DNA of 64,000 nt from an uncultured Candidatus Actinomarina sp. (lineage in GTDB: Bacteria; Actinomycetota; Acidimicrobiia; Actinomarinales; Actinomarinaceae). Of the stretch, positions 14,572 through 64,000 are shown one piece after another. The translations under genes were made by a program, and so were the position numbers. The notes beneath the pieces are model-generated. The model ran no database searches. It was not told where the DNA came from and saw only the letters and a program-made list of their open reading frames with translations. The stretch is from positions 7,422-71,421 of the forward strand of contig CACGVI010000002.1 in NCBI GenBank assembly GCA_902576605.1. The letters run 5' to 3'. Position 1 is the first letter of the stretch, and every line of letters begins with the position of its first letter.

Positions 14572-16404
14572 ATGGATAAAAGAGTGTCTAAGAGCTTCAA
14601 ATCAATTTTTAAAAACTTTTACCCAAATCTTGATGAAAATGAATGCAACAAAGCCTTAGATTACTTTTTATTCGCATTGGAGAAATTTCCAGATAAAAGC
14701 AATATTTTACAACTCAAGCTTTTTCTTTATGTTTTCTCATTTAGGTTTAGAGAGCTTTTAATAAAAAATAAAAATGTTAAAAACTTTTTCACTTACCTCC
14801 AGGGATCAAATATTTTAATTTTGCGAAAACTTGGTATTTATATTTTTGTATTAATGGGACACTGTATCTCAAGATCTCTTGATGGAGAAGGGGTAATTTA
14901 TAACAAACTAAGATATCCAAAACATGTTAATGGAACGGTAGATAAGAAATCGCATTCATTTCCTGAAAAAGTTCAGGTGGCAGTCATTGGTAGTGGGGCT
15001 GGTGGAGGTGTAGCAGCACACACTCTCTCAAAAAAATATAATGTTGCTGTATTTGATAAAGCAAGTTATCTCAATAAAGAGAAAAACAATGAAACTTTTG
15101 GGTATCACAACTTTTTTGAACACTATGGACTCAGTGCGACGAGAGGTTTTGGAATTCAACTTCTTACAGGTAAAAGTATAGGTGGTGGTACGAGCATCAA
15201 TTGGCAGACCTCACTTGAGACACCGACAGAAGTGTTGAATGAATGGGATGAACTGACTAAACAAAAAGATTACTTTAATTCTGATACATTTAGGGAAAGT
15301 ATCAACTACGTAATTGATAATCTTGGAGTTACAACCGAATTTAACCATATTCCATTGAAAGAGGAAAAATTAGCAGAAGGGTTTAATAAAAATAATATTG
15401 GCTATCGCGTAATTCCAAAAAATAATCGCAGTACTCACGGCATGGAATGTGGTTTTTGTGCCTTTGGATGTGGATACGAAAGTAGAAATTCATCCTATAA
15501 AGTCTGGTTGCAGAATGATGATTTTAATGGTGATATCTTCAGCGATACAGGTATCAAAAAAATTATTTTAGATAATAACAAAGCTACACACATTGAAGTA
15601 GAAAACAATGGAACAGTTTCAAGAATCGAAGTTGAAAAAGTTATTCTTGCAGGTGGATCATTGAACACTCCTAGCATCTTGTTAAATAGTGGATATAAGA
15701 ACCCTCAACTTGGTAAGAACCTAAAGACTCACCCAGTCTCAGGAGTTGCAGCAAAATTTAATGAAGAACAAAAGCCCTGGTATGGAAGTATGCAGGGTAT
15801 GCATTCTGAGGATTTCTTGTTTAAAACCAATAACTATGGGTACTTATTACAGGGATTGCCAATGCATCCAAGTATCTTTTTTCCGTATTTTCCAAATTTT
15901 GTCTCCTCAGCTGAAGATTTTATTGAAAGTTATAATCACTGGTCTGGAGCAATTGTTCTAACATCTGATACAAGTAGTGGTTCTTTAATTAACAATGGTC
16001 CACTCTGGAAGTATAAATTAAATGATTTTGATAATAATCATCTCCTTGATGGACTATCCCAACTTGTAAGGTCTTATTATCTTGCTGGTGCAAAAGAAAT
16101 TATGGTTTCTGCTTCTCCAACAATGTATTGGAAAAGAAATGAAAATGAAGATATAGAAGAATTTTTGGGTAAAATTTTGTCAATCAAAAATCAGCCTTAT
16201 AGATTGCTTTTAGGTTCGGCACATCAGATGGGAACAGCAAGAATCAACCCAAACCCAGAACACGGAGTTGTTGATTTAGATGGAAAAGTACATGGCTTAA
16301 AAAATGTTTATATTGTAGATGCTTCAACTTTTCCAAGATGCTCAGGTGTGAACCCTATGGTTAGTATTCAATCTATGAGCCACTTCTTGATGTCAAAAAT
16401 TTAG
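14572..16404 (+). CDS. GMC-family FAD-dependent oxidoreductase with about 135-aa N-terminal extension (alcohol-oxidase-like)
   Basis: VAVIGSGAGGGVAAHTLS (FAD fold), HQMGTARI and VYIVDASTFP near the C-terminus. Confidence 0.75.
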   Translation: MDKRVSKSFKSIFKNFYPNLDENECNKALDYFLFALEKFPDKSNILQLKLFLYVFSFRFRELLIKNKNVKNFFTYLQGSNILILRKLGIYIFVLMGHCISRSLDGEGVIYNKLRYPKHVNGTVDKKSHSFPEKVQVAVIGSGAGGGVAAHTLSKKYNVAVFDKASYLNKEKNNETFGYHNFFEHYGLSATRGFGIQLLTGKSIGGGTSINWQTSLETPTEVLNEWDELTKQKDYFNSDTFRESINYVIDNLGVTTEFNHIPLKEEKLAEGFNKNNIGYRVIPKNNRSTHGMECGFCAFGCGYESRNSSYKVWLQNDDFNGDIFSDTGIKKIILDNNKATHIEVENNGTVSRIEVEKVILAGGSLNTPSILLNSGYKNPQLGKNLKTHPVSGVAAKFNEEQKPWYGSMQGMHSEDFLFKTNNYGYLLQGLPMHPSIFFPYFPNFVSSAEDFIESYNHWSGAIVLTSDTSSGSLINNGPLWKYKLNDFDNNHLLDGLSQLVRSYYLAGAKEIMVSASPTMYWKRNENEDIEEFLGKILSIKNQPYRLLLGSAHQMGTARINPNPEHGVVDLDGKVHGLKNVYIVDASTFPRCSGVNPMVSIQSMSHFLMSKI

Positions 16405-25271: not shown

Positions 25272-25309
25272 AATAAAAAATAAAGAGCCGGTTAAAAAAC
25301 CGGCTCTTT
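25272..25309 (-). terminator. rho-independent terminator after the ABC substrate-binding gene
   Basis: Reverse strand: AAAGAGCCGG-TTTTTTAA-CCGGCTCTTT followed by ATTTTTTATTA. A 10 bp perfect stem. Confidence 0.8.
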
Positions 25310-25327
25310 AAATTCAATATTAAAAGT

Positions 25328-26716
25328 TTATGAACAAGGTCCTCCTGACCAGTCATAACCTTCTCCTGTTGGACCAGTATATCCACTATTTAAGATTGCT
25401 GTTCCACCAGGTAATGCACCATTTGGCGTGGTCATAACGCTAACTGGTGTTTGCACATTAGCTCCGAGTGTCTTTGATGGGAACATTCCATCAGAAGAAA
25501 CTGGAACATTAGCTGCTGCTCTTCTTATACCTGCCCTTGTAAGATCAGTTCCTTTTATAGAAGCCTCAAGAGCACTAGAAATGTGCTGTTGTGAAGCCCA
25601 ACCAGCAACTATATAGACGCTAGTTGATTCAACACCTGCTCCAGCTAAAATATTTCTCATATTTTCATGTCCTGGTGTTTCTCCACCATAAGGAGCAAAA
25701 ACGGAAGAAATATAAAAAGCTCCGGATTCAAACAGATCTTTCACTGGTGATCCTTCGACAACAAATTGACCTGAAAATGATGGTGTTGCCATCATAGTTA
25801 TTGGTACAACTCCATTTTGTGCCGCACCACCAGCCAACTGTGCCATACTACCAGGATCAATTGCAGGAAAGTATGCATCTACAGGTTTAGTTACAAGCAA
25901 GCCAACAGCCTGTGTAACGTCAAATTGTCCTGGTGCATATAAATACTCCCAAGCAACCTCAACGCCTCTAGCTGCAGCTGCAGTTTTAACTCCAGCAGCA
26001 TAATCAAGACCATAATCATCTTGTTGTGCAACTATACCAATAGTCTTTATGTCAACCGGTAAGTTATCTAAACTCCAATCGAGACCATTCATACCATCTG
26101 CACAATATGTTGAACCATATTCAATGATAAGACCCTTATCAACTGCATCAAAAGACCAGCCAGAATACCAACTCAATGGAGCCGCAAGCATATTATCTTT
26201 ATCTAATTCGTCAAGAATAAATAAAGTTAATGGCGTTCCAAGTGACAATGCCAATGCAGCAACGTCATTTCTCATTGCATTGTATTCTTCTAGATGTTTT
26301 TGAGGATTATATCCGGTGTCTGCTGCCTCTCTAACAGCTACACAATAATCACCTAAACAACCTGTTAGGTTTTTCCAAGCCCAATATGACCTTATGCCAA
26401 CTTCAACTGGTAAACCAGCAGCACCATAAGGACCTGTATAATCGCTTAAAATTCCAAGGTAAATACATCCTTTTGCTTGATCAGCATTTGTAGGAAATTC
26501 ACCTATTACCTCAGGACATGGCTCTTCAGTCACACCAAAATCTGTATTTACGGATTTTGCAGTTGTGACTGCTGGCGAATCAAGAGTTTCTACTACTTCT
26601 TCAACAACTTCTTCTGTTGCTTCTTCTTCAGTAGCACCTCCGCCACACATTACCATGATTAAGGCTAAAATTGATAATATAATCAGACTTCGCTTACGCA
26701 AAGAAATTGAATTCAT
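25328..26716 (-). CDS. ABC transporter substrate-binding lipoprotein (LIV/Peripla_BP_6-like)
   Basis: 462 aa. Signal peptide ending VMCGGG with a Glu/Thr/Val-rich linker. It is the last gene of a livF-livG-acs-livH-livM-SBP operon. Confidence 0.65.
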   Translation of the reverse strand: MNSISLRKRSLIILSILALIMVMCGGGATEEEATEEVVEEVVETLDSPAVTTAKSVNTDFGVTEEPCPEVIGEFPTNADQAKGCIYLGILSDYTGPYGAAGLPVEVGIRSYWAWKNLTGCLGDYCVAVREAADTGYNPQKHLEEYNAMRNDVAALALSLGTPLTLFILDELDKDNMLAAPLSWYSGWSFDAVDKGLIIEYGSTYCADGMNGLDWSLDNLPVDIKTIGIVAQQDDYGLDYAAGVKTAAAARGVEVAWEYLYAPGQFDVTQAVGLLVTKPVDAYFPAIDPGSMAQLAGGAAQNGVVPITMMATPSFSGQFVVEGSPVKDLFESGAFYISSVFAPYGGETPGHENMRNILAGAGVESTSVYIVAGWASQQHISSALEASIKGTDLTRAGIRRAAANVPVSSDGMFPSKTLGANVQTPVSVMTTPNGALPGGTAILNSGYTGPTGEGYDWSGGPCS

Positions 26717-54240: not shown

Positions 54241-55320
54241 ATGAAAAACGCTGCAGGGTCATTGGCTATTTTAGGGTCTGGAGAAACAAGCCCTAACTTA
54301 GTTAGTGTGCATAGAGAACTTCTTAATGGATTAAATGATTCTTCAGACATTTTTATGATTGACTCACCATTTGGATTTCAAGAAAATGCTAATCAGCTCG
54401 TTGAAAAAATTATAAATTTTTACAAAGTTAGTTTAAACGTTGATATGAAATTAGCTACTTACAGAAAAATTGAAGAATTGCATTCAAAATCATTCTTTAA
54501 ATCAATTCAATTATTAGAAAATGCTTCATTTATTTTTGCTGGACCTGGAAGCCCTAGCTATGCAAGCAAGCTTTGGTACGGTAATGAATTTCAACAAACT
54601 TTAAGAAATCATCTTATAAATGGTAACAACAGTTTATTTGCAAGTGCAGCAGCCTCTACTCTCGGAGAGTATACCTTGCCTGTCTACGAAATTTATAAAG
54701 TAGGTCAAGACCCTTATTGGGAAAAGGGGTTGAATATTTTAGATGTTTATGGTTTGTCTTGTACGGTAATTCCTCACTTTAATAATGCAGAGGGTGAAAA
54801 TCATGATACAAGCTTTAGTTATGTTGGTGAAAATAGAATGAAAACTCTTTTAGAAAACTCTTACTCAAACATTCTTGGTATCGATGAACATACTGCGCTA
54901 ATAATTTCTGGAAAAAAAGAAACATTCAAAGTTGTCGGATTAGGTAATGTAACTATTTTAAACAATGAAGGAACTCATGTTTTTGAAAAAGATTCTGAAG
55001 AAAGTTTGAGTAAATTACAAAAACTTCTGATTTCTGACAAAAAAAGCTCAGTCAAAGTAATAGATAGTAAGGCAACTGAAGTAAATTCTGCAGATAAAAC
55101 TACTCTAAAAGAAATTGCTAATTTAGAAATTCAAATAGAGTCTAATAAAAAAAATAATGAGCGTTTCGAAATGTTAGTTGAAAATCTAATATTACTTAGA
55201 TCAAAGTTAAGAAATGAAAAAAAATATGAGCTTTCTGATCAAGTTAGAGATATATTAGAATCTTCTGGTTTACAGATAGAAGATTCTGAACAAGGCATTC
55301 AATGGAAAGTTACTGAATAG
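54241..55320 (+). CDS. hypothetical two-domain protein with a C-terminal segment resembling the CysRS C-terminal tail
   Basis: 359 aa from ATG 54241. The N-terminal domain (ILGSGETSP, FAGPGSPSY, IPHFNNAEGENHD) is unassigned. The C-terminal LRSKLRNEKKYELSDQVRDILESSGLQIEDSEQGIQWKV resembles the R..K.....AD.IRD.L...GI.LED...G..W tail of cysteinyl-tRNA synthetases (from memory). Confidence 0.4.
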   Translation: MKNAAGSLAILGSGETSPNLVSVHRELLNGLNDSSDIFMIDSPFGFQENANQLVEKIINFYKVSLNVDMKLATYRKIEELHSKSFFKSIQLLENASFIFAGPGSPSYASKLWYGNEFQQTLRNHLINGNNSLFASAAASTLGEYTLPVYEIYKVGQDPYWEKGLNILDVYGLSCTVIPHFNNAEGENHDTSFSYVGENRMKTLLENSYSNILGIDEHTALIISGKKETFKVVGLGNVTILNNEGTHVFEKDSEESLSKLQKLLISDKKSSVKVIDSKATEVNSADKTTLKEIANLEIQIESNKKNNERFEMLVENLILLRSKLRNEKKYELSDQVRDILESSGLQIEDSEQGIQWKVTE

Positions 55321-56131
55321 CTTTTGGATAATGCCCTAATAACTTAAATTCTTTAGAGACTTTAATTATTTTTTCCTCAAGCTCAGATTGTTTTTCCAAG
55401 TTTTCTAATTCATAATCTATATAAAATTTGTACTCCCAAGGCCTTCCAAGTATTGGTCGTGATTCAAGTTTTGTAAGGTTTATATCAAGTTCACTAAAAA
55501 TATTCAAAGACTGCAATAACGAACCTGGCTTATCATCAGATATGAGTACTGATGAAACCTTGTTTTTAATTTGTTTCTGTTCTAAATCTATATCTCCAAT
55601 TAAAAGGAATCTTGTATAATTTTCTTCATGATTTGATATATTTTTTTCTAAAATCAGAAATCTTTCATCGCTTTCAAAATGTTCACCGGCTATCGCAGCT
55701 GTAGTGATTTCATTTTTTTCTAAAATTTCAAATACACTTCCCGCTGTATCAAAGACTGGAGTGATTATGAACTTATGCTTTTGTATAAACTTGCTGCACT
55801 GCTGTAATGCCTGTGGGTGAGAAATAACATTTGTAATATTTGACATATCTGAACCGACTAAGCCAATTAAACTATGGTTAATTCTATGTACATATTCAGC
55901 AAATATTTTTAAACCACTGTCTATAAGCTCTTCGTATGCTTCATTCACAGTACCTGCAATTGAATTTTCAACAGGCAATAACCCAATGCCAGAATCAGAT
56001 TTTACATAAGAAATTAACTCAGTAAATGTCTCAGTTGGATGATAAAGATAATCTGGATATTCTTTTTTTAAAAGTTCTTCTGAATATGAGCCAGATGAAC
56101 CTTGGTAAGCAATTATTTTTTTACTGTTCAT
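55310..56131 (-). CDS. pheA: prephenate dehydratase with C-terminal ACT domain
   Basis: IAYQGSSGSYSE, TRFLLIG and LTKLESRP. The start is taken at the internal Met (56131) rather than track 56176. Confidence 0.85.
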   Translation of the reverse strand: MNSKKIIAYQGSSGSYSEELLKKEYPDYLYHPTETFTELISYVKSDSGIGLLPVENSIAGTVNEAYEELIDSGLKIFAEYVHRINHSLIGLVGSDMSNITNVISHPQALQQCSKFIQKHKFIITPVFDTAGSVFEILEKNEITTAAIAGEHFESDERFLILEKNISNHEENYTRFLLIGDIDLEQKQIKNKVSSVLISDDKPGSLLQSLNIFSELDINLTKLESRPILGRPWEYKFYIDYELENLEKQSELEEKIIKVSKEFKLLGHYPKAIQ

Positions 56132-56558
56132 TAATATACTCCAGTGCTTCAATATATCCCTGCACACCTCTTCCAATAATTGATTTATTACAAATATCAG
56201 AAATTAAGTTTATTTTTCTAAATTCTTCTCTTTGATTTATATCTGAAATATGTACTTCAACTATTTCATTTTTTTGTGAGTAAGTCTGCAAAGCGTCTCT
56301 TATTGCAATACTTGTATGTGTGTACGCACCAGGGTTAATCACAATCCATGTTTTTTCATTATTAACTAGATTTTGTATATAATTTACAATTTCGCCTTCA
56401 ATATTTGATTGAAAAAAATCAGTTTTGATTTTTAACTTTTTAGCTTTAGAATCTACTAAATTTTTTAACTCATCAAAACTTGTGGAGCCGTATTGTGTAA
56501 TTTCTCTTATACCTAAAAAATTTAGATTGGGACCATTGATAATGTATATATTTTTAAT
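56121..56558 (-). CDS. aroQ: type II 3-dehydroquinate dehydratase, probable ATT start
   Basis: The track shows only the C-terminal 73 aa from an internal GTG. The frame is open back to TGA 56567..56565. It encodes IKNIYIINGPNLNFLGIREITQYG...FFQSNIEGEIVNYIQ...WIVINPGAYTHTSIAIRDAL, a full AroQ. There is no ATG/GTG/TTG upstream. GAGGTGAT (56571..56564) lies 5 nt before ATT 56558..56556. Confidence 0.8.
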   Translation of the reverse strand: MKNIYIINGPNLNFLGIREITQYGSTSFDELKNLVDSKAKKLKIKTDFFQSNIEGEIVNYIQNLVNNEKTWIVINPGAYTHTSIAIRDALQTYSQKNEIVEVHISDINQREEFRKINLISDICNKSIIGRGVQGYIEALEYINEQ

Positions 56559-57546
56559 TTTGAATCACCTCAATCAATTCATCAAAACTTATACTAATTA
56601 AATTAGGTTGTGATATATCTGACAATAAAACAATATCTATAGAATCAGATTTACTTTTTTTATCATCTTTTAAAATTTCTAATAAGTAATCGATACTGTT
56701 TTCAAATTCATATGATTTCTTAAAATCGAGTTTTTCTAGATACGATATATATAAATCAATAACCTCTTGTGGTAATCCAAAATATTCTTTAGATAGTTCG
56801 AGTTCATAAATCATTCCTATAGCAATTGCTTCACCGTGTGATAAATTGAACTTTGAATCTTGCTCAATTAAGTGGCCTATTGTGTGTCCGAAATTTAAAT
56901 ATTTCCTTTTTCCGATTTCTAAGTAATCTTCTTTTACGATATCTTCTTTGATTTGTATTCCTTTTTTGATTGTCTTAGTATCTATTTTGAAATTTTCTGT
57001 AGAAACCAATGTATTAAATATTTCTTTACTTCCAATTAGTCCGTGTTTTATAAGCTCAATTAATCCATCTTTATAATCATTGTCTTTCAATGTGTTGAGA
57101 AGTTCAAAACACACAACAACACTCTTTGGCAAATTAAAAGTTCCAATCTGGTTTTTTCCATAAACATTATTAAAACCGTTTTTCCCTCCATGAGATGCAT
57201 CAACCATCGCTAATAAAGTAGATGGAACTAATGTGAAGGCAACACCCCTTTTATATGTACTTGCAGCAAAAGAGCAGAGATCGAGCAAAACCCCACCTCC
57301 AATAATTACTACTTCATCTGATCTATTTAAATTTGATAAAAACATTATTTCCCAAATTTTTTCAATTGTTTCTAAATTTTTTGTTTCTTCAGAAACTTCA
57401 AGATATACATGGCTTGCCTTAAAGCTGCTATGTAATTGAAATTGCTCGAGAGCAGAATCCAAAATAATTAAGCTCTCATTTGGTAAATCTCCATTAATAT
57501 GTTTGATTAATTCTTCAGTGCTGTTTAAGTAAATATTTTTAGACAT
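56554..57546 (-). CDS. aroB: 3-dehydroquinate synthase
   Basis: IIGGGVLLDLCSFAAS and NFGHTIGHLIE...HGEAIAIGM. Confidence 0.9.
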   Translation of the reverse strand: MSKNIYLNSTEELIKHINGDLPNESLIILDSALEQFQLHSSFKASHVYLEVSEETKNLETIEKIWEIMFLSNLNRSDEVVIIGGGVLLDLCSFAASTYKRGVAFTLVPSTLLAMVDASHGGKNGFNNVYGKNQIGTFNLPKSVVVCFELLNTLKDNDYKDGLIELIKHGLIGSKEIFNTLVSTENFKIDTKTIKKGIQIKEDIVKEDYLEIGKRKYLNFGHTIGHLIEQDSKFNLSHGEAIAIGMIYELELSKEYFGLPQEVIDLYISYLEKLDFKKSYEFENSIDYLLEILKDDKKSKSDSIDIVLLSDISQPNLISISFDELIEVIQN

Positions 57547-58039
57547 TTTGAGTTTCCATTATTTCTAATACTTTACTTGTAGTATCTTTTACATTTTCAT
57601 TTGAAATTTTATATTCCATCATTTCGTATCTTTTTATTCTATTTTTATATCTACTTTCAAGAAATTCTCTTCCGTTACTGACTAATGGCCTGTTACTATT
57701 TTTAATTCTTTCCCAAAGGCTTTCAAAGTTAAGACTTAAATAAATGGTTTGGTGACTTTTAAGTAAATTCTCAAAAATATTGTCATTTTCTATCACACCA
57801 CCACCTAAAGAAATTAAATCAAATTTGTTTTGATTTGCAAAAAATTCTTTTTCTTCAATTTCCCTAAAAAAAGTCTCTCCTTTTTTTTCAAAAATATTTT
57901 CTATTTGACCATACTTATTCTCTATATTTTCATCCAAATCAATACACCTATATTTAGTTTGTCTTTTAATGTTGTTTAAAATCGTAGTTTTGCCAACACC
58001 CATAAACCCACATAAATAAAATGAATTATTCATTTTCAT
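57539..58039 (-). CDS. aroK: shikimate kinase
   Basis: 166 aa with the GFMGVGKTT P-loop and LGGG. Confidence 0.85.
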   Translation of the reverse strand: MKMNNSFYLCGFMGVGKTTILNNIKRQTKYRCIDLDENIENKYGQIENIFEKKGETFFREIEEKEFFANQNKFDLISLGGGVIENDNIFENLLKSHQTIYLSLNFESLWERIKNSNRPLVSNGREFLESRYKNRIKRYEMMEYKISNENVKDTTSKVLEIMETQNV

Positions 58040-59207
58040 ATTTCATAGACCATGTTTTATTTGCCAAATTAAAACTATCAAGAGTTATGTCTTTTATTTC
58101 ATTAATTCGTTTAAAAATTACTTCTTTATTATCTCCACCTGTATTTTCAATCAGAGAATTTAATAAATCTATAGATATTACACTTTCAAAAATAGGCACA
58201 GCTCTAGGTACAGCGCAGGTGTCAGACCTTTCATAGGTAGTTTCTGTCTCTTTCTGTGATGCCAGGTCTACGCTCTTTATAGGAGTCAAAGTTGTACTTA
58301 TAGGTTTTAAATAAGAAGTTATCATAATAGGCTCTCCAGTTGACATGCCTCCCTCAAATCCACCTAAATTATTTGTAATTCGTTCTACATTTTGTTCATT
58401 TAAAACTATTTGATCTTGTACAGCAGTACCAAAATCTTTAGATGCCTCTATACCACTGCCAACCTCAACTGCTTTAACGCTCTGTACAGACATCATTGAT
58501 GAGACAAGTTTTGCATCTAGCTTTCTATCAAAATGAACATAGCTACCACAACCTGCAGGAAAATTTTTTGCCACTAATGTTATAGAGCCACCTAATGTGT
58601 CTTTTTTCTTTCTTGCCTTTAAAATTTCATTTATCATTAATTCACTTGTTTCCTTATTTGGACAGGACACTTCAGATTCATCAACAAGTTTTTTAATTTG
58701 ACCTATGTCTTCTAAATTAATATTTTCTAACTTTTGCTCACCAATAGATGAAACATAACCAACAACTACAACTCCAAGTTGATTTAAAATTTGATGACAG
58801 ATAGCTCCAATTGCACATCTAATTGCAGTTTCACGAGCACTTGCTCTTTCGAGTGAAAGCCTTATATCATCATGTTGATACTTAAATGTCCCAACTAAGT
58901 CAGCATGTCCTGGACGAGGAACTACGAAAGGTTCTATTTCTTTATCCTTCCAATTTTTCCAGTCTTTATTGATTATCTTTATTGTTATCGGACCACCAGT
59001 TGATAAATTATTAATGACTCCAGAAGTAATTAAAACCTCATCTTTTTCAATATTCATTCTTCCGCCAGAACCTAAAGATTTTTGCCTTCTTGCAAGAAAC
59101 TCGTCAATATAATTTTTACTTACTTCAAAATTTGATGGAATGCCTTCTATAATTGCTGTTAATTCTGGTCCATGACTCTCACCAGCAGTCAAATATTTAA
59201 TTTTCAT
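58026..59207 (-). CDS. aroC: chorismate synthase
   Basis: LTAGESHGPELTAIIEGIP, GRMNIE-type GGRMN and RPGHADL. Confidence 0.95.
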   Translation of the reverse strand: MKIKYLTAGESHGPELTAIIEGIPSNFEVSKNYIDEFLARRQKSLGSGGRMNIEKDEVLITSGVINNLSTGGPITIKIINKDWKNWKDKEIEPFVVPRPGHADLVGTFKYQHDDIRLSLERASARETAIRCAIGAICHQILNQLGVVVVGYVSSIGEQKLENINLEDIGQIKKLVDESEVSCPNKETSELMINEILKARKKKDTLGGSITLVAKNFPAGCGSYVHFDRKLDAKLVSSMMSVQSVKAVEVGSGIEASKDFGTAVQDQIVLNEQNVERITNNLGGFEGGMSTGEPIMITSYLKPISTTLTPIKSVDLASQKETETTYERSDTCAVPRAVPIFESVISIDLLNSLIENTGGDNKEVIFKRINEIKDITLDSFNLANKTWSMKYENE

Positions 59208-60012
59208 GATCTATCCTTTCTAAAATTTCCTTGTAAACTTCGTTAAATTTTATACTTTGTCCTGTCCATATGTTAAACGATGAAATTGCTTGAGCAATTA
59301 ACATTATTGTTCCATCAATGGATGTTACATTTTTAGGAAGTTCACTTGTTAATTTCTTTGATACGCCGTATCCAAAGTTATAAAACAATTTTAATTTTGA
59401 GAAATTTGGAAGTCTTATTGGAAGTTTTTCGTTTTCATATGGTGGCATTCCCAGTGGCGTAGTATTTATAATGACCTCAATATTACTAGCAATCTCATTA
59501 AGATCTGAATAAGTTAAGTCTCCATCCTTTTTATTTCTAGACACTGTGTAAACATTATTATTTTCTGACAACGTATACTGTGCAGTTTGCGCACTTCCTC
59601 CACTGCCAAGAATAAGAACATGTTTGTTATTAATATCAAAATTTAAAAATTCAAAAGTTTGATTTATACCATCCACATCTGTGTTTGATAATGAAACAAT
59701 ATTGTCATCTACTTTTACGGTATTTACAGCTTTAATGTTATCAACTGCTAATGACCTCGAAACATTTTTTAAATCTTTAGATAAGTTATAAATGTTTTCT
59801 TTATGAGGTATTGTTATGTTATATCCATCAAAATTATTATTTAAACTTTCAAAGATATCTAAAGTGAAATTTTCAATTGGTAATTTTTTATAAGTAACAT
59901 CAACATTAAAAATCTCAGAGAGAGTTTGATGAATATTTGGAGAAAATGTCTTTATTAATGGCCAACCTATTATCCCTAATCTAATTGTCATAATTTGCTC
60001 CAATTTTTTCAA
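59197..60012 (-). CDS. aroE: shikimate 5-dehydrogenase
   Basis: LGIIGWPLIKTFSPNIH, NITIPHK, NTD and LGSGGSAQ. Confidence 0.85.
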   Translation of the reverse strand: MKKLEQIMTIRLGIIGWPLIKTFSPNIHQTLSEIFNVDVTYKKLPIENFTLDIFESLNNNFDGYNITIPHKENIYNLSKDLKNVSRSLAVDNIKAVNTVKVDDNIVSLSNTDVDGINQTFEFLNFDINNKHVLILGSGGSAQTAQYTLSENNNVYTVSRNKKDGDLTYSDLNEIASNIEVIINTTPLGMPPYENEKLPIRLPNFSKLKLFYNFGYGVSKKLTSELPKNVTSIDGTIMLIAQAISSFNIWTGQSIKFNEVYKEILERIDHEN

Positions 60013-61297
60013 GATCTGAAAAAAAACTAGGGTATGAATCTGAAATACAGTTTATGTTATCTGGTTTAATTCCGTCATTAATTGCTAGGTTTGCAATTAC
60101 ACCAGTCATAGCTATTCTGTGGTCCTCAAAAGTTTTAATTTGTCCTGATTTGAGTTTTTGAGGACCGTTAACTTTAAACCCATCAGGGTTAACCTCTATT
60201 TCTCCACCAAGAGTTTTAATAAATTTTTCCATAGATTCTATACGGTCTGATTCTTTTAGTCTCAACTCACCTGCACCACTTACTGTAGTTATTCCCTTTG
60301 CTTGAGTTGCCAAAAGGGTAAATATTGGAAATTCATCTACCATGTCAGATACGTCTTCGTTACTAACCTTGATAGCAGAGAGATTAGATTTTGAAACATG
60401 TATATCTCCTACTGATTCATTATTTTTGACTTCTAAATTTTCGATTGATATTTTTGCGTTCATTCTCTTTAATATCTTGAGGAAACCAATTCTTCTCTCA
60501 TTAAGTAAAACATTTTTGATGATTAATTTTTTACTTTTCATTAGCCCAAGTCCTATCAAAAAAGCTGCTGAAGAAGGATCTCCAGGAACAATATAATCCA
60601 TACTTCTAAGGCTTTGTACAGGCTCTATTGTTATAGAATTGCCAAGTCTTACGGTATTTACTCCCATTAAATTTAACATTCGTTCAGTGTGATCTCTTGT
60701 TGGCAACTCTTCAGTAACAGTCGTTGGAAATTCATCATGATATAGTGATGCAAGAAGAAATCCACTTTTAACTTGTGCACTTGGTTTATCTGAATGAATA
60801 CTTTCGAATTTATAATCTTTTGGTTCAAAATTAATTGGTAATTTACCATTGGAATCTTTTATATCAGCACCCTTTTCATTGAGCGGCTTGACTACTCTCT
60901 TCATTGGACGTTTGATTAATTGAGAACTACCTGTTAATTCAGTGCTGAAATTTTGTTTTGACAGTAGACCTATAAGAAGCCTTGCAGTTGTACCAGAATT
61001 TACTGCATCAAGTGAATTATTAGGTTGTTTTAAGCCACGTAACCCTACTCCGTGAATCTCAACTTCATTGTTGTTTGTTTCATTTATTTCTACACCTAAT
61101 TGTCTAAAAATATGTATCGTAGCTTTAGTATCTCCTGACAATAAAATATTTTTGATTCTTGAAACTCCAGTTGCTAAAGAGCAGAGAATTACTGCTCGAT
61201 GAGAAAGAGATTTGTCACCAATAATACTCAAAGAGCCTTGAATTTTCACTATGTGAGGTCTCTTTCTCCAAATTTGTCTGCTAAGGCTCTTCGCCAA
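59981..61297 (-). CDS. aroA: 3-phosphoshikimate 1-carboxyvinyltransferase (EPSP synthase)
   Basis: IIGDKSLSHR, NSGTTARLL, KESDR and DHRIAM. An alternative in-frame GTG start at 61249 overlaps the tyrA stop by 1 nt. Confidence 0.9.
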   Translation of the reverse strand: MAKSLSRQIWRKRPHIVKIQGSLSIIGDKSLSHRAVILCSLATGVSRIKNILLSGDTKATIHIFRQLGVEINETNNNEVEIHGVGLRGLKQPNNSLDAVNSGTTARLLIGLLSKQNFSTELTGSSQLIKRPMKRVVKPLNEKGADIKDSNGKLPINFEPKDYKFESIHSDKPSAQVKSGFLLASLYHDEFPTTVTEELPTRDHTERMLNLMGVNTVRLGNSITIEPVQSLRSMDYIVPGDPSSAAFLIGLGLMKSKKLIIKNVLLNERRIGFLKILKRMNAKISIENLEVKNNESVGDIHVSKSNLSAIKVSNEDVSDMVDEFPIFTLLATQAKGITTVSGAGELRLKESDRIESMEKFIKTLGGEIEVNPDGFKVNGPQKLKSGQIKTFEDHRIAMTGVIANLAINDGIKPDNINCISDSYPSFFSDLEKIGANYDN

Positions 61298-62085
61298 TCA
61301 ACAGTATCTGACAAATAATCTAACATAATTTTTTCGTCATTAATTTTTTGAATTTTTTCAAGTTCTGATATTAATTTATCAATTAAATCTTTGACATTGT
61401 CAACATTTGTTAAGTACATATCAGAAATCATATTTGGTGAAGTCCTAGATAGACGAGTAGCTCCATCAAAACCCCCGGAAGCTAAATTTATCAATTCGTT
61501 TAAATCTTGTTCTTTCATAGCAAGCGATACTAAGGCTGAACTTAGAATATGCGGCAAGTGACTTGTCAATGAAATTAACTCGTCGTGTTTAGATTGATCA
61601 ATCCATATCTCTTTAGATTCAATAGCTCGTACAAATTCTGAAACTAGTGCTTTGCTTTGTTCATCTGTTGACTTTGTTTCACATAGCAAAAATGGAGCAC
61701 CTTCATACATTTCAGGAGTCGGCACCCATGTACTATTATCAGCAACACCACATAATGGATGTCCACCTATTGAAGGAATAGTAGATGTATCCATTTTTTT
61801 ACATATAAGCTCTTTTGTACCTCCCAGGTCAACAATAGCTTTTGTTTTCAGAGATAGTGGTGAATCAAAATAGTTGATAATTTCATTTATAGGTGTAGCC
61901 AAAACGGTAAGATCATAATCTATTGATTCTTTATGATCCAGCGAAAGAGCACCGAGCTCTTTTGCACGCCCTACATTTTTTTTTGAAATATCAGATCCAC
62001 TTACTTTAATGCCACTATTAACCAACTTGATTCCCAAATTAGCTCCCATTAGACCAAGACCAATAATATGAACTTTTTTTAGCAT
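61249..62085 (-). CDS. tyrA: prephenate dehydrogenase
   Basis: VHIIGLGLMGANLG (NAD fold), GGHPLCG and SHLPHILS. Confidence 0.85.
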   Translation of the reverse strand: MLKKVHIIGLGLMGANLGIKLVNSGIKVSGSDISKKNVGRAKELGALSLDHKESIDYDLTVLATPINEIINYFDSPLSLKTKAIVDLGGTKELICKKMDTSTIPSIGGHPLCGVADNSTWVPTPEMYEGAPFLLCETKSTDEQSKALVSEFVRAIESKEIWIDQSKHDELISLTSHLPHILSSALVSLAMKEQDLNELINLASGGFDGATRLSRTSPNMISDMYLTNVDNVKDLIDKLISELEKIQKINDEKIMLDYLSDTVDWRRALADKFGERDLT

Positions 62086-63098
62086 TAAAGTGACCTTCCG
62101 ACCGCCTTTGCGACAATCGATGCTTTGCTTATCAAAGTTTCTAATTCGCTAGGTAGTAACGCTTGTGGACCATCACATAAAGCTTCTTCCGGCCTTGGGT
62201 GGATTTCAATTAATAACCCATCAGCCCCAGCAGCTATAGCTGCTAACGCAACTGGTTCAACTAAAGTATTATCACCTGTCGCATGACTAGGATCAGCAAT
62301 TATAGGTAAATGACTGTTCTGCTTCAAAAAAGGAATAGCATTTATATCAAATGTATTCCTTGTGGCTGTCTCATATGTTCTAATCCCTCTTTCACACAAC
62401 ATAACATTCTCATTTCCTCTAGACAAGATGTATTCACTTGCAAGTAATAACTCATCCAATGTTGCAGACATTCCTCGTTTTAACAAAACAGGAAGCTCTG
62501 ATTCACCAACAGCTTCGAGGAGTTTGAAATTCTGCATGTTTCTTGCACCAATTTGTAGAACATCTACATATTTTTCCATCATTGATAAATGTTGCGCATC
62601 CATTATTTCACTAAAGAGAGGTAATGAAGTTATTTCGGAGGCCTCCTTTAGCATTTTTAATCCATCTTCACCCAATCCCTGGAAACTATATGGAGAAGTT
62701 CTTGGCTTAAATGCACCACCTCTCAAACCATTTGATCCTGCATCCTTTGCAGCCATTGCAGTTTCAATTGTTTGTTCCTGTGTCTCCGCACTGTCTGGGC
62801 CAGCAATAATTGCGATTTCATCGCCACCAATGGTTAGATTTTGTATTTGAATAATGGAATTTTTCTTTTTGTAGTTTTTGCTCGCAAGTTTATATGGTTT
62901 TCCTACTGGAATAACTCTACTTACATTTGGTAAAAGCTTCATCACGGCTCGGTGATCATCATTCACTTTTCCACTAACTGCCACAACACTTCTTTCAACA
63001 CCGTTTATAACAAGTGGTTCATGTCCTTGCTGTATGGCTTTTTCTTTTACTTTCTCAATATCTTCATCAGAATGAGACTGCTTCATTACTACTATCAA
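62085..63098 (-). CDS. aroF: DAHP synthase, type I-beta with N-terminal ferredoxin-like regulatory domain
   Basis: TTG start giving MIVVMK. LRGGAFKPRTSPYSFQGLGEDGL, IGARNMQNF, LLKRG, CERGIRT and DPSH. The architecture resembles the Thermotoga-type enzyme. Confidence 0.9.
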   Translation of the reverse strand: MIVVMKQSHSDEDIEKVKEKAIQQGHEPLVINGVERSVVAVSGKVNDDHRAVMKLLPNVSRVIPVGKPYKLASKNYKKKNSIIQIQNLTIGGDEIAIIAGPDSAETQEQTIETAMAAKDAGSNGLRGGAFKPRTSPYSFQGLGEDGLKMLKEASEITSLPLFSEIMDAQHLSMMEKYVDVLQIGARNMQNFKLLEAVGESELPVLLKRGMSATLDELLLASEYILSRGNENVMLCERGIRTYETATRNTFDINAIPFLKQNSHLPIIADPSHATGDNTLVEPVALAAIAAGADGLLIEIHPRPEEALCDGPQALLPSELETLISKASIVAKAVGRSL

Positions 63099-63110
63099 TT
63101 TTCCTCCTCA

Positions 63111-63139
63111 AAATAAAAAAATCGGGCTTTTGCCCGATT
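63111..63139 (-). terminator. intrinsic terminator of the aro leader (attenuator helix 3:4)
   Basis: Reverse strand: AAUCGGGC-AAAA-GCCCGAUU followed by UUUUUAUUUU. It ends 2 nt before the GAGGAGG Shine-Dalgarno of aroF. Confidence 0.8.
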
Positions 63140-63163
63140 ACACACAACGTACTTTAGGGCAAC

Positions 63164-63208
63164 CTATATGTGCTCTCTAAAGTAAAAGTATGTGTTATTT
63201 AATTTCAT
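63164..63208 (-). CDS. 14-aa leader peptide MKLNNTYFYFREHI (Tyr/Phe regulatory codons)
   Basis: It contains the only ATG in the 153-nt aroH-aroF spacer. Codons 7-10 are UAC UUU UAC UUU. The UAG stop abuts the antiterminator segment. No obvious Shine-Dalgarno. Confidence 0.6.
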   Translation of the reverse strand: MKLNNTYFYFREHI

Positions 63209-63251
63209 TAACAGATATGTTAGCAGAGTATTTAGCTTTGCAAATAAATTT

Positions 63252-63596
63252 TTATCTATCGGGTCTCAATTTTTTGGCATCATCTAAATAAACATGATTA
63301 ACTTCTGTTAAATCTTTGTTTAAATAGACCAATATGCGAATGCATCCTGAAAGATCACCATCTATATCTGGTGCAAGAGTGTCTAAAGCGGCAACAGATG
63401 TCATTTCAAGCTCCCGAAATGCTTTTGCTGGAAAAGCTACAGAAATATCCGAAGTTACTGTAAAAATAGCAAATTCTATATCATTTTCAGTTATTGCATT
63501 CTTAATTAGAATTTCACTAATAAGTTTCTTTGAAGAAGACATAATGCTTTCTTCATTATTTTCAACGACTGCAATCGCTCCACGTATGCTTTTCAT
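63252..63596 (-). CDS. aroH: AroH-class monofunctional chorismate mutase
   Basis: 114 aa with MKSIRGAIAV, AFPAKAFRE, CIRILVY and HVYLDDAKKLRPD, parallel to Bacillus AroH. Confidence 0.85.
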   Translation of the reverse strand: MKSIRGAIAVVENNEESIMSSSKKLISEILIKNAITENDIEFAIFTVTSDISVAFPAKAFRELEMTSVAALDTLAPDIDGDLSGCIRILVYLNKDLTEVNHVYLDDAKKLRPDR

Positions 63597-63615
63597 AATA
63601 TTTGTATACTATATA

Positions 63616-63643
63616 AAAAGAGTGGAACGATGTCCACTCTTTT
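63616..63643 (-). terminator. rho-independent terminator downstream of groEL
   Basis: Reverse strand: AAAAGAGUGGA-CAUCGU-UCCACUCUUUU followed by UAUAU. Confidence 0.75.
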
Positions 63644-63665
63644 TTAATTCTTAGATGTAAATTTG

Positions 63666-64000
63666 TTACATCATACCTTCCATGCCACCCATTCCGCCTG
63701 GAGGCATTGGTGGTTCATCTTCTGGCTCTTCTGCAATTAACGCTTCTGTAGTTAATACCAATGAAGCTATTGAGGTTGCATTTTGAACAGTTGATCTTGT
63801 TACTTTTGCAGGATCAATTACGCCTTCTTTAACCAAGTCAGTTGTTTCTCCAGTTGCTGCGTTAAGTCCTACATTTCCTTTTTCAGATTTAACTTTTTCA
63901 ACCATTACGCCACCTTCGTAACCAGCATTTACTGCTATTTGTCTAAGTGGAGCCTCAAGGGCTTTTTGAACTATGTTCCTTCCAACTATCTCTCCTTCAG
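63666..64000 (-). CDS. groEL: chaperonin GroEL, C-terminal part (5' end outside the window)
   Basis: [47 protein letters not shown] and a terminal [12 protein letters not shown]. The open frame continues to the window edge. Confidence 0.95.

Follow-up and report, generated by a model that had tools for sequence, protein, structure and literature searches.

In Corynebacterium glutamicum, the aroF gene is preceded by a leader open reading frame (ORF) of 78 nt (cg4017, aroR) that is marked as leaderless ('LL') and associated with a short transcript of 154 nt (Mentz et al. 2013, PMC4046766, supplementary file 5). According to an article citing the original work, read-through from this leader, which bears a Phe-Tyr-Phe motif upstream of aroF, is raised under phenylalanine limitation (Neshat 2014 cited in PMC11802643). 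Leader-peptide attenuation with an ORF beginning at the transcription start and lacking a ribosome-binding site has also been described for the ilvB, leuA and trp leaders of Corynebacterium (Morbach et al. 2000; PMC5784534; PMC10272879), while a comparative survey of Actinobacteria did not report any regulatory RNA structure for genes of Phe or Tyr and no paper linking Actinomarina to attenuators was found in the literature searched. Here, a 64,000-nt stretch of DNA from an uncultured Candidatus Actinomarina sp. (contig CACGVI010000002.1, positions 7,422 to 71,421; hereafter the window) was analyzed, in which the 153-nt spacer between aroH and aroF, read on the minus strand as are all of its features given below, probably functions as a ribosome-mediated, that is, leader-peptide attenuator of the aroF-...-pheA operon sensing the charging of tRNA-Phe and tRNA-Tyr. 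The marine actinobacterium Candidatus Actinomarina is abundant and uncultured and has an extremely streamlined genome. The assignment of the host is supported by the 3-deoxy-D-arabino-heptulosonate-7-phosphate (DAHP) synthase of the window, which is 99% identical to proteins of Candidatus Actinomarina single-cell genomes, and the NCBI taxonomy places the genus in Actinomycetota.

By analogy in logic and by phylum, the aroR-aroF attenuator of C. glutamicum is the closest relative of this element. Both are found in Actinomycetota and have, immediately before a gene for DAHP synthase, a leader with alternating Phe and Tyr codons, and the leaderless leader transcript and the short attenuated transcript of C. 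glutamicum have predicted counterparts in Actinomarina. However, the ORF in Actinomarina comprises only 45 nt (14 codons) compared with 78 nt for aroR, the predicted short transcript is about 95 nt instead of 154 nt long and, unlike in C. glutamicum, the leader is followed by the genes of the entire shikimate pathway together with tyrA and pheA. Moreover, the lineage and G+C content of Actinomarinales are very different from those of C. glutamicum, and the DAHP synthases presumably differ as well, being of type I-beta with a ferredoxin-like domain in Actinomarina and an E. coli-like AroF in C. glutamicum. Compared by published description, an independent origin of the two aroF leaders is plausible. 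The ilvB, leuA and trp leaders of Corynebacterium share attenuation by a leaderless ORF (predicted in the case of Actinomarina) within the same phylum, but concern other amino acids, operons and taxa and show no sequence relation.

The spacer holds a single ATG (63208-63206), which opens the ORF noted in the initial annotation of this DNA, as confirmed by reading the minus strand, with 14 codons plus TAG (63164..63208, MKLNNTYFYFREHI*; ATG AAA TTA AAT AAC ACA TAC TTT TAC TTT AGA GAG CAC ATA TAG, stop at 63166-63164). Translation of this ORF is predicted to proceed from a leaderless or nearly leaderless mRNA, and its codons 7-10, TAC TTT TAC TTT (Tyr-Phe-Tyr-Phe, 63179..63190), are the putative regulatory codons. 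For comparison, 45 genomes were available, i.e., 44 Actinomarinales and the window, representing 41 distinct flanks; the alignment and the folds covered 30 distinct spacers (variants). The ORF is intact in all 45, with an invariant ATG and 13-14 codons, the sole indel within it being a frame-preserving deletion of 3 nt in one clade. Likewise, [Y/F]-F-Y-F is kept in 45/45 genomes with a constant spacing to the stop codon, and the only changes in the regulatory codons are TAC<->TAT and TAC<->TTT, hence synonymous or Tyr<->Phe, with the first aromatic codon being TAC, TAT or TTT depending on the genome. The N-terminal residues vary (K/N, L/I/M/T, N/V/M/L...), as in MKLNNT, MNLNNT, MKTVTT, MKMNNS and MKINT, while the stop codon is either TAG or TAA and always located 1 nt ahead of (U/C)(U/C)GCCC. 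Overall, the variation within the leader ORF looks like that of a translated sequence. At its end, neither the nucleotides nor the peptide vary in the His-Ile-stop codons (CACAUAUAG), and the same holds for most of the residue before them.

An exact-pattern scan found the core motif exactly once in each of 44 genomes, all of them Actinomarinales or OCS155, and nowhere else among 185,579 species genomes. A protein search with the DAHP synthase returned 36 Actinomarinales loci at 76-99% identity, one of which (L036) is cut inside the gene and lacks the spacer, and sequences from other phyla at about 55% or less; no aromatic-rich leader ORF was found upstream of the homologous genes in these other phyla (L037-L080), while the element is conserved in every Actinomarinales genome having this aroF. 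The 76-nt core, which extends from the aromatic codons as far as the T-run, shares 82-99% identity with the window where the third codon positions of aroF have dropped to 43-56%, and in more distant genomes its identity equals or exceeds that of the first and second codon positions of aroF. This contrast to the diverged third positions points to a mostly non-coding element under strong purifying selection. Hence, it is the conservation in 44 other genomes that places the element beyond chance, as several of its features would be within chance expectation in one sequence.

The minimum-energy fold of the spacer consists of a hairpin, 1:2, and the terminator and amounts to -34.9 kcal/mol (RNAfold; z = -2.56, 0/200 shuffles as good). 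The complementary segments UACUUUAG (63184-63177) and CUAAAGUA (63157-63150) had been correctly placed before, and the hairpin built on them is larger than initially noted. Region 1 (63171..63195), lying within codons 5-13, provides its 5' strand with ACACAUA, UACUUUAG and an apical G.GCA. Region 2 (63140..63162) begins 1 nt past the leader stop codon and contains UUGCCC as the 5' arm of the putative antiterminator, followed by CUAAAGUA and UGUGUGU of the 3' strand of hairpin 1:2. Accordingly, an outer helix ACACAUA:UGUGUGU (63195-63189 with 63146-63140) extends the stem, and at the apex GAGCA of codons 12-13 (G.GCA) pairs with UGCC, so that the antiterminator 5' arm is itself sequestered in the 1:2 state. 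The hairpin including the outer helix forms in 30/30 variants, with the register of the latter shifting among them (ACACA:UGUGU, ACAAUAC:GUAUUGU, GAACAC:GUGUUU and ACAACGUA:UACGUUGU). In the window, CACAUA occurs as a second copy in codons 5-7 and both copies can pair with UGUGUG, which is not seen in other clades; the alternative pairing by the copy in codons 13-14 was therefore dismissed as not conserved.

For the antiterminator, the positions given earlier for UUGCCC (63162-63157) and GGGCAA (63130..63135) are likewise right, the latter being part of the 5' arm plus the loop of the terminator, and the GCCC arm is invariant in 45 genomes. Whether UUGCCC:GGGCAA is the exact antiterminator helix is evenly balanced in our judgement. 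The intrinsic terminator AAUCGGGC-AAAA-GCCCGAUU with its U-rich tail (regions 3:4, 63110..63139; terminator scan) corresponds on the DNA level to AATCGGGC-AAAA-GCCCGATT (63139-63120) with TTTTTATTTT behind it; the consensus scan counts 8 pairs, including 5 G-C pairs, and the stem is invariant in 30/30 variants. Its position agrees with the initial annotation, in which the tail was described as ending 2 nt before GAGGAGG; it actually reaches this Shine-Dalgarno sequence, an immaterial deviation of about 1 nt. Within the 64-kb window, this is among the few convincing intrinsic terminators, and no other attenuator-like terminator was found there, the remaining strong hairpins being located at gene ends. 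A search of positions 62000-64000 against Rfam at a permissive E-value gave chance-level hits only, the best overlapping one being icd-II with 21.4 bits versus a gathering threshold of 99. None of the families, including the Rfam Phe_leader, reaches its gathering threshold, and membership in a known riboswitch, T-box or leader family was rejected on this basis. A search for a better antiterminator than UUGCCC:GGGCAA gave none.

All three states are thermodynamically plausible, with energies across the 30 variants of -10 to -18 kcal/mol for 1:2, -6.7 to -10.7 kcal/mol for 2:3 and -12.7 to -14.5 kcal/mol for 3:4. A similar order of stability is found in the trp leader of E. coli, in which 3:4 likewise exceeds 2:3 in stability and kinetics decides between the two. 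In the absence of translation, 1:2 and 3:4 form. For simulating a translating ribosome, the RNA was hidden from its first nucleotide through 13 nt beyond the codon in the A site and the nascent RNA was folded to the end of the terminator loop. With the fourth aromatic codon in the A site, GCCC:GGGC then forms in 30/30 variants, and with the third in 29/30. By contrast, it forms in 0/30 when the stop codon occupies the A site, in line with the earlier proposal that a ribosome terminating at the UAG adjacent to region 2 masks this segment. The proposed comparison of 1:2, 2:3 and 3:4 energies yielded all three states and the expected switch in the 30 variants, and these masked folds agree with the comparative conservation in corroborating the trp/pheA-type attenuation geometry initially suggested.

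The attenuators of E. coli (pheL-pheA, pheM-pheST and trpL-trpEDCBA) share with the Actinomarina element the succession of 1:2, 2:3 antiterminator and 3:4 terminator, regulatory codons within region 1, a stop codon just before region 2 and a terminator immediately before the first structural gene. They differ in that the E. coli leaders possess a Shine-Dalgarno sequence and a 5' untranslated region (UTR), whereas the Actinomarina leader is predicted to be leaderless, in that pheL has seven Phe and no Tyr codons compared with four mixed Tyr/Phe codons, and in the much shorter antiterminator (4-6 bp) of Actinomarina, the element of which does not match the Rfam Phe_leader.

As already recognized as a weak point of the attenuator, direct reading of the spacer confirms that no Shine-Dalgarno sequence precedes the leader ATG. 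The leaderless transcript that had been mentioned as a possible solution is now backed by conserved -35 and extended -10 sequences, with the 5' end being a prediction. An extended -10 element TGCTAACAT (63217..63225; consensus TGnTAnnnT) is present in 41/41 distinct flanks from 45 genomes, and a -35-like hexamer TTTGCA (63239..63244; TTGGCA in one clade) is located 16 nt upstream of the -10 hexamer. In the alignment of the 30 distinct spacers, positions A7, T8, T9, G11 and A13 of the -35 footprint TT(T/G)G(C/T)A are invariant and the next 12 nt vary freely, after which T27, G28, T30, A31 and T35 of the -10 element are again invariant. The stricter form TGnTAnnAT occurs in all distinct flanks except one (L014, TGCTAAGCT), the seventh base being A in 29/30 spacers. 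From the extended -10 element to the leader ATG, the gap is 7 nt in 28 of the 41 distinct flanks, 8 nt in 12 and 6 nt in 1. With a -10 element 6-8 nt ahead of the ATG, transcription is expected to start at or 1-2 nt before the AUG, which would render the leader ORF leaderless. In the predicted leaderless RNA, the first 12 nt are unpaired in all folds. The question of the absent Shine-Dalgarno sequence is thus largely resolved by a conserved putative promoter at leaderless distance.

Reading of the spacer also bears out that there is no room for a promoter between the terminator and aroF. The candidate TATTTT in the U-tail was rejected, since transcription from it would start inside or after the Shine-Dalgarno sequence and it is absent in relatives. 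Elsewhere in the window, many genes with an ATG start and no Shine-Dalgarno sequence have TAnnnT 5-8 nt upstream, for example, at 14572(+), 46864(-), 24205(-), 25254(-), 51699(+) and 18554(-). This suggests that leaderless mRNAs are common in the Actinomarina genome, while the AT-rich background may contribute to the TAnnnT counts. At one of these sites, a strong 13-bp terminator (25281-25310, minus strand) directly follows a gene ending at 25328, and the next ATG (25254) lies about 27 nt downstream with TATTAT 6 nt upstream of it, resembling a compact junction of a terminator and a leaderless promoter.

From these features we infer the transcription start, the translation of the ORF, the ribosome stall and the regulatory response to Phe and Tyr as follows. 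Transcription would be started by the internal spacer promoter (-35 TTTGCA, 16 nt, TGn-TAACAT) either directly at the AUG (63208) or 1-2 nt ahead of it, and the 14-codon ORF would be translated from the leaderless mRNA. With plentiful Phe and Tyr, the ribosome should reach the UAG at 63166-63164, where it would cover the adjacent UUGCCC, or it would depart and allow 1:2 to re-form. By either route, the terminator AAUCGGGC/GCCCGAUU would form and transcription would end just ahead of the aroF ribosome-binding site, leaving an attenuated transcript of about 95 nt. When Phe-tRNA or Tyr-tRNA is scarce, the ribosome would stall on Tyr-Phe-Tyr-Phe (63190-63179) and keep region 1 open, so that UUGCCC could pair with GGGCAA once the latter is transcribed, taking away the 5' arm of the terminator and letting the polymerase enter aroF. 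In transcripts reading through from aroH, the leader AUG would be internal and without a Shine-Dalgarno sequence, and these RNAs should adopt both 1:2 and 3:4 and be ended by the same terminator. It is possible, if rather doubtful, that this amounts to a filter for transcript origin, with only the transcripts from the internal promoter being open to antitermination by Phe/Tyr because the AUG is usable only at the RNA 5' end. If so, one hairpin would serve both as unconditional terminator of aroH and as conditional attenuator of the nine genes of the operon, and this in a genome that has very few regulators. A further layer, at the level of the peptide or of a pause, might be contributed by the invariant codons at the C-terminus (His-Ile-stop, CACAUAUAG).

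Several findings weigh against an attenuator of this kind or against parts of it. In the window, a stall at the first of the aromatic codons gives a different minimum-energy fold. The putative antiterminator is only 6 bp long, shrinks to 5 bp in 9/30 variants and to 4 bp in one without compensation of these losses and closes a loop of about 22 nt; a 6-bp helix of this kind is easily found by chance in a single sequence. Similarly, a run of four F/Y, which occurs in 5/871 short ATG ORFs of the window, is not beyond chance in one sequence. The motif of extended -10 plus ATG was observed 15 times in the AT-rich window versus 19.5 expected, and the promoter, with 4 + 4 of 12 matches, remains under the threshold of a generic scan. 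As the motif is not significant in a single sequence, the case for the promoter is drawn entirely from conservation. Furthermore, the attenuator model gives no reason for the invariance, in 45 genomes, of the loop CACAUAUA(G/A)G (63163-63172), which is unpaired in every predicted state and is made up of leader codons 13-14, the stop codon and the G after it. Finally, no helix shows statistically supported covariation, neither with RNAalifold nor by fixed-column pair counts, which are not above those of shuffles. For the outer helix, cognate strand pairs reach -6.15 kcal/mol compared with -5.44 kcal/mol for non-cognate ones, with 22/5000 permutations as good, a modest difference that is confounded by relatedness. 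Hence, the alignment proposed at the outset confirmed the conservation of the Tyr/Phe codons but not the compensatory changes, as covariation does not exceed the controls. Changes in the inner 1:2 helix, in the terminator and in the antiterminator are either absent or one-sided; across the alignment, the inner 1:2 helix is paired to 97.8%, and for UUGCCC:GGGCAA 94.4% of cells are paired with no covariation. With invariant core helices, covariation tests are uninformative, and the support for the helices is invariance and thermodynamics, not covariation.

The same observations bear on other explanations of the spacer. The hairpin might be the plain terminator of aroH, with constitutive leaky read-through into the aroF operon and a mini-ORF that is an accident of AT-rich sequence. 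Indeed, as no other terminator follows aroH, the hairpin must end aroH transcripts anyway, F/Y runs and -10-like motifs are common in the AT-rich genome, and covariation of the helices is lacking. Nevertheless, we consider this highly improbable, since the ORF, its frame, the aromatic run and the stop position are kept in 45/45 genomes while synonymous sites of aroF are saturated, conservation upstream of the terminator includes a promoter-like footprint, and about 90 nt of near-invariant sequence upstream would be unnecessary for simple termination. A hairpin bound by a protein or small molecule, either riboswitch-like or TRAP/PyrR-like, could choose between terminator and antiterminator without the ORF being translated. 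In favour of this, neither the apical region nor the loop CACAUAUA(G/A)G has a pairing role although both are invariant, and the ATG is without a Shine-Dalgarno sequence. The latter is explained by the conserved -10 element at leaderless distance as well, however, and the hairpin is small and simple and matches no Rfam family. Moreover, constraints of the coding type, such as the 3-nt indel, Tyr<->Phe exchanges, a variable N-terminus versus fixed aromatic codons and the conserved stop, are not expected of an element acting purely as RNA, making this explanation very unlikely.

Two further alternatives retain translation of the leader. The first assumes a nascent arrest peptide with the C-terminus [E/A]-H-I that senses free Phe/Tyr, similar to TnaC, instead of tRNA charging. 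While this would account for the invariance of H-I-stop and most of the preceding residue, for which the pairing model gives no reason, four consecutive codons for the operon's own end products are a signature of codon-level sensing. In addition, if the effector caused a stall at the stop codon, UUGCCC would be masked and the result could only be termination, which is already the default, and the peptide is very short for a sensor in the exit tunnel, so that we regard this mechanism as extremely improbable. The same attenuation might also operate on a leader that is not leaderless, with ribosomes ending at the aroH stop codon (63254-63252) re-initiating 44 nt downstream. Such coupling is compatible with aroH and the leader being co-directional with no terminator between them, and with a transcription start that is predicted only. 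Re-initiation over 44 nt without a Shine-Dalgarno sequence is inefficient, though, and would leave the conserved -35/TGnTAnnnT footprint at the right distance to the ATG without a role, while for leader ORFs of Corynebacterium the leaderless state is the documented rule; it is therefore quite unlikely. In summary of these comparisons, leader-peptide attenuation by tRNA-Phe and tRNA-Tyr charging, starting from a leaderless mRNA, is the preferred reading.

If confidently predicted, this attenuator would demonstrate control of a nine-gene pathway without a dedicated regulator protein, and it would extend the leaderless leader-peptide design of Corynebacterium to a distant actinobacterial order of low G+C content. 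The predicted short transcript represents a concrete target for existing marine metatranscriptomes. The use of such a finding would lie in annotation and in understanding regulation in a streamlined uncultured lineage, with the mechanism itself being unsurprising; as it is a textbook mechanism, the gain is one of annotation and breadth and not a new principle.

The putatively controlled operon, aroF-tyrA-aroA-aroE-aroC-aroK-aroB-aroQ-pheA (55310..63098, minus strand; Pfam assignments), is complete, with nine genes covering the shikimate pathway and the Tyr and Phe branches, and contains no trp genes. The presence of tyrA and pheA without trp genes, as deduced from Pfam, agrees with the effector logic put forward in the initial annotation. 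Its first gene has a Shine-Dalgarno sequence GAGGAGG (63109-63103) and a TTG start (63098), the feature thus spanning 63098..63109, and encodes a DAHP synthase with an N-terminal ferredoxin-like regulatory domain (Pfam). Upstream, aroH (chorismate mutase, Pfam CM_1; stop codon TAA at 63254-63252, minus strand) lies on the same strand as the leader, and neither the terminator scan nor direct reading revealed a terminator between the two. On its own upstream side, aroH has a promoter-like site, and the strong terminator setting it apart from groEL is a 12-bp hairpin at 63615-63644 between the groEL end and aroH (region 63608-63644). The promoter-like sequence, TGGACA-17-TATAGT (minus strand), overlaps this hairpin and ends 11 nt before the aroH ATG (63596), so that the 5' UTR of aroH would be only about 5 nt long.

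Within the operon, an apparent gap of 378 nt between aroB and pheA is filled by aroQ (56121-56558, minus strand), encoding a type II 3-dehydroquinase (Pfam DHquinase_II, E = 7e-50). No in-frame ATG, GTG or TTG is found ahead of the start of the domain in aroQ. Its likely start is an ATT at 56558-56556, which shares 1 nt with the TAA of aroB and is preceded by GAGGTG at a distance of 7 nt, and due to this non-canonical start codon the ORF is invisible to standard ORF lists.

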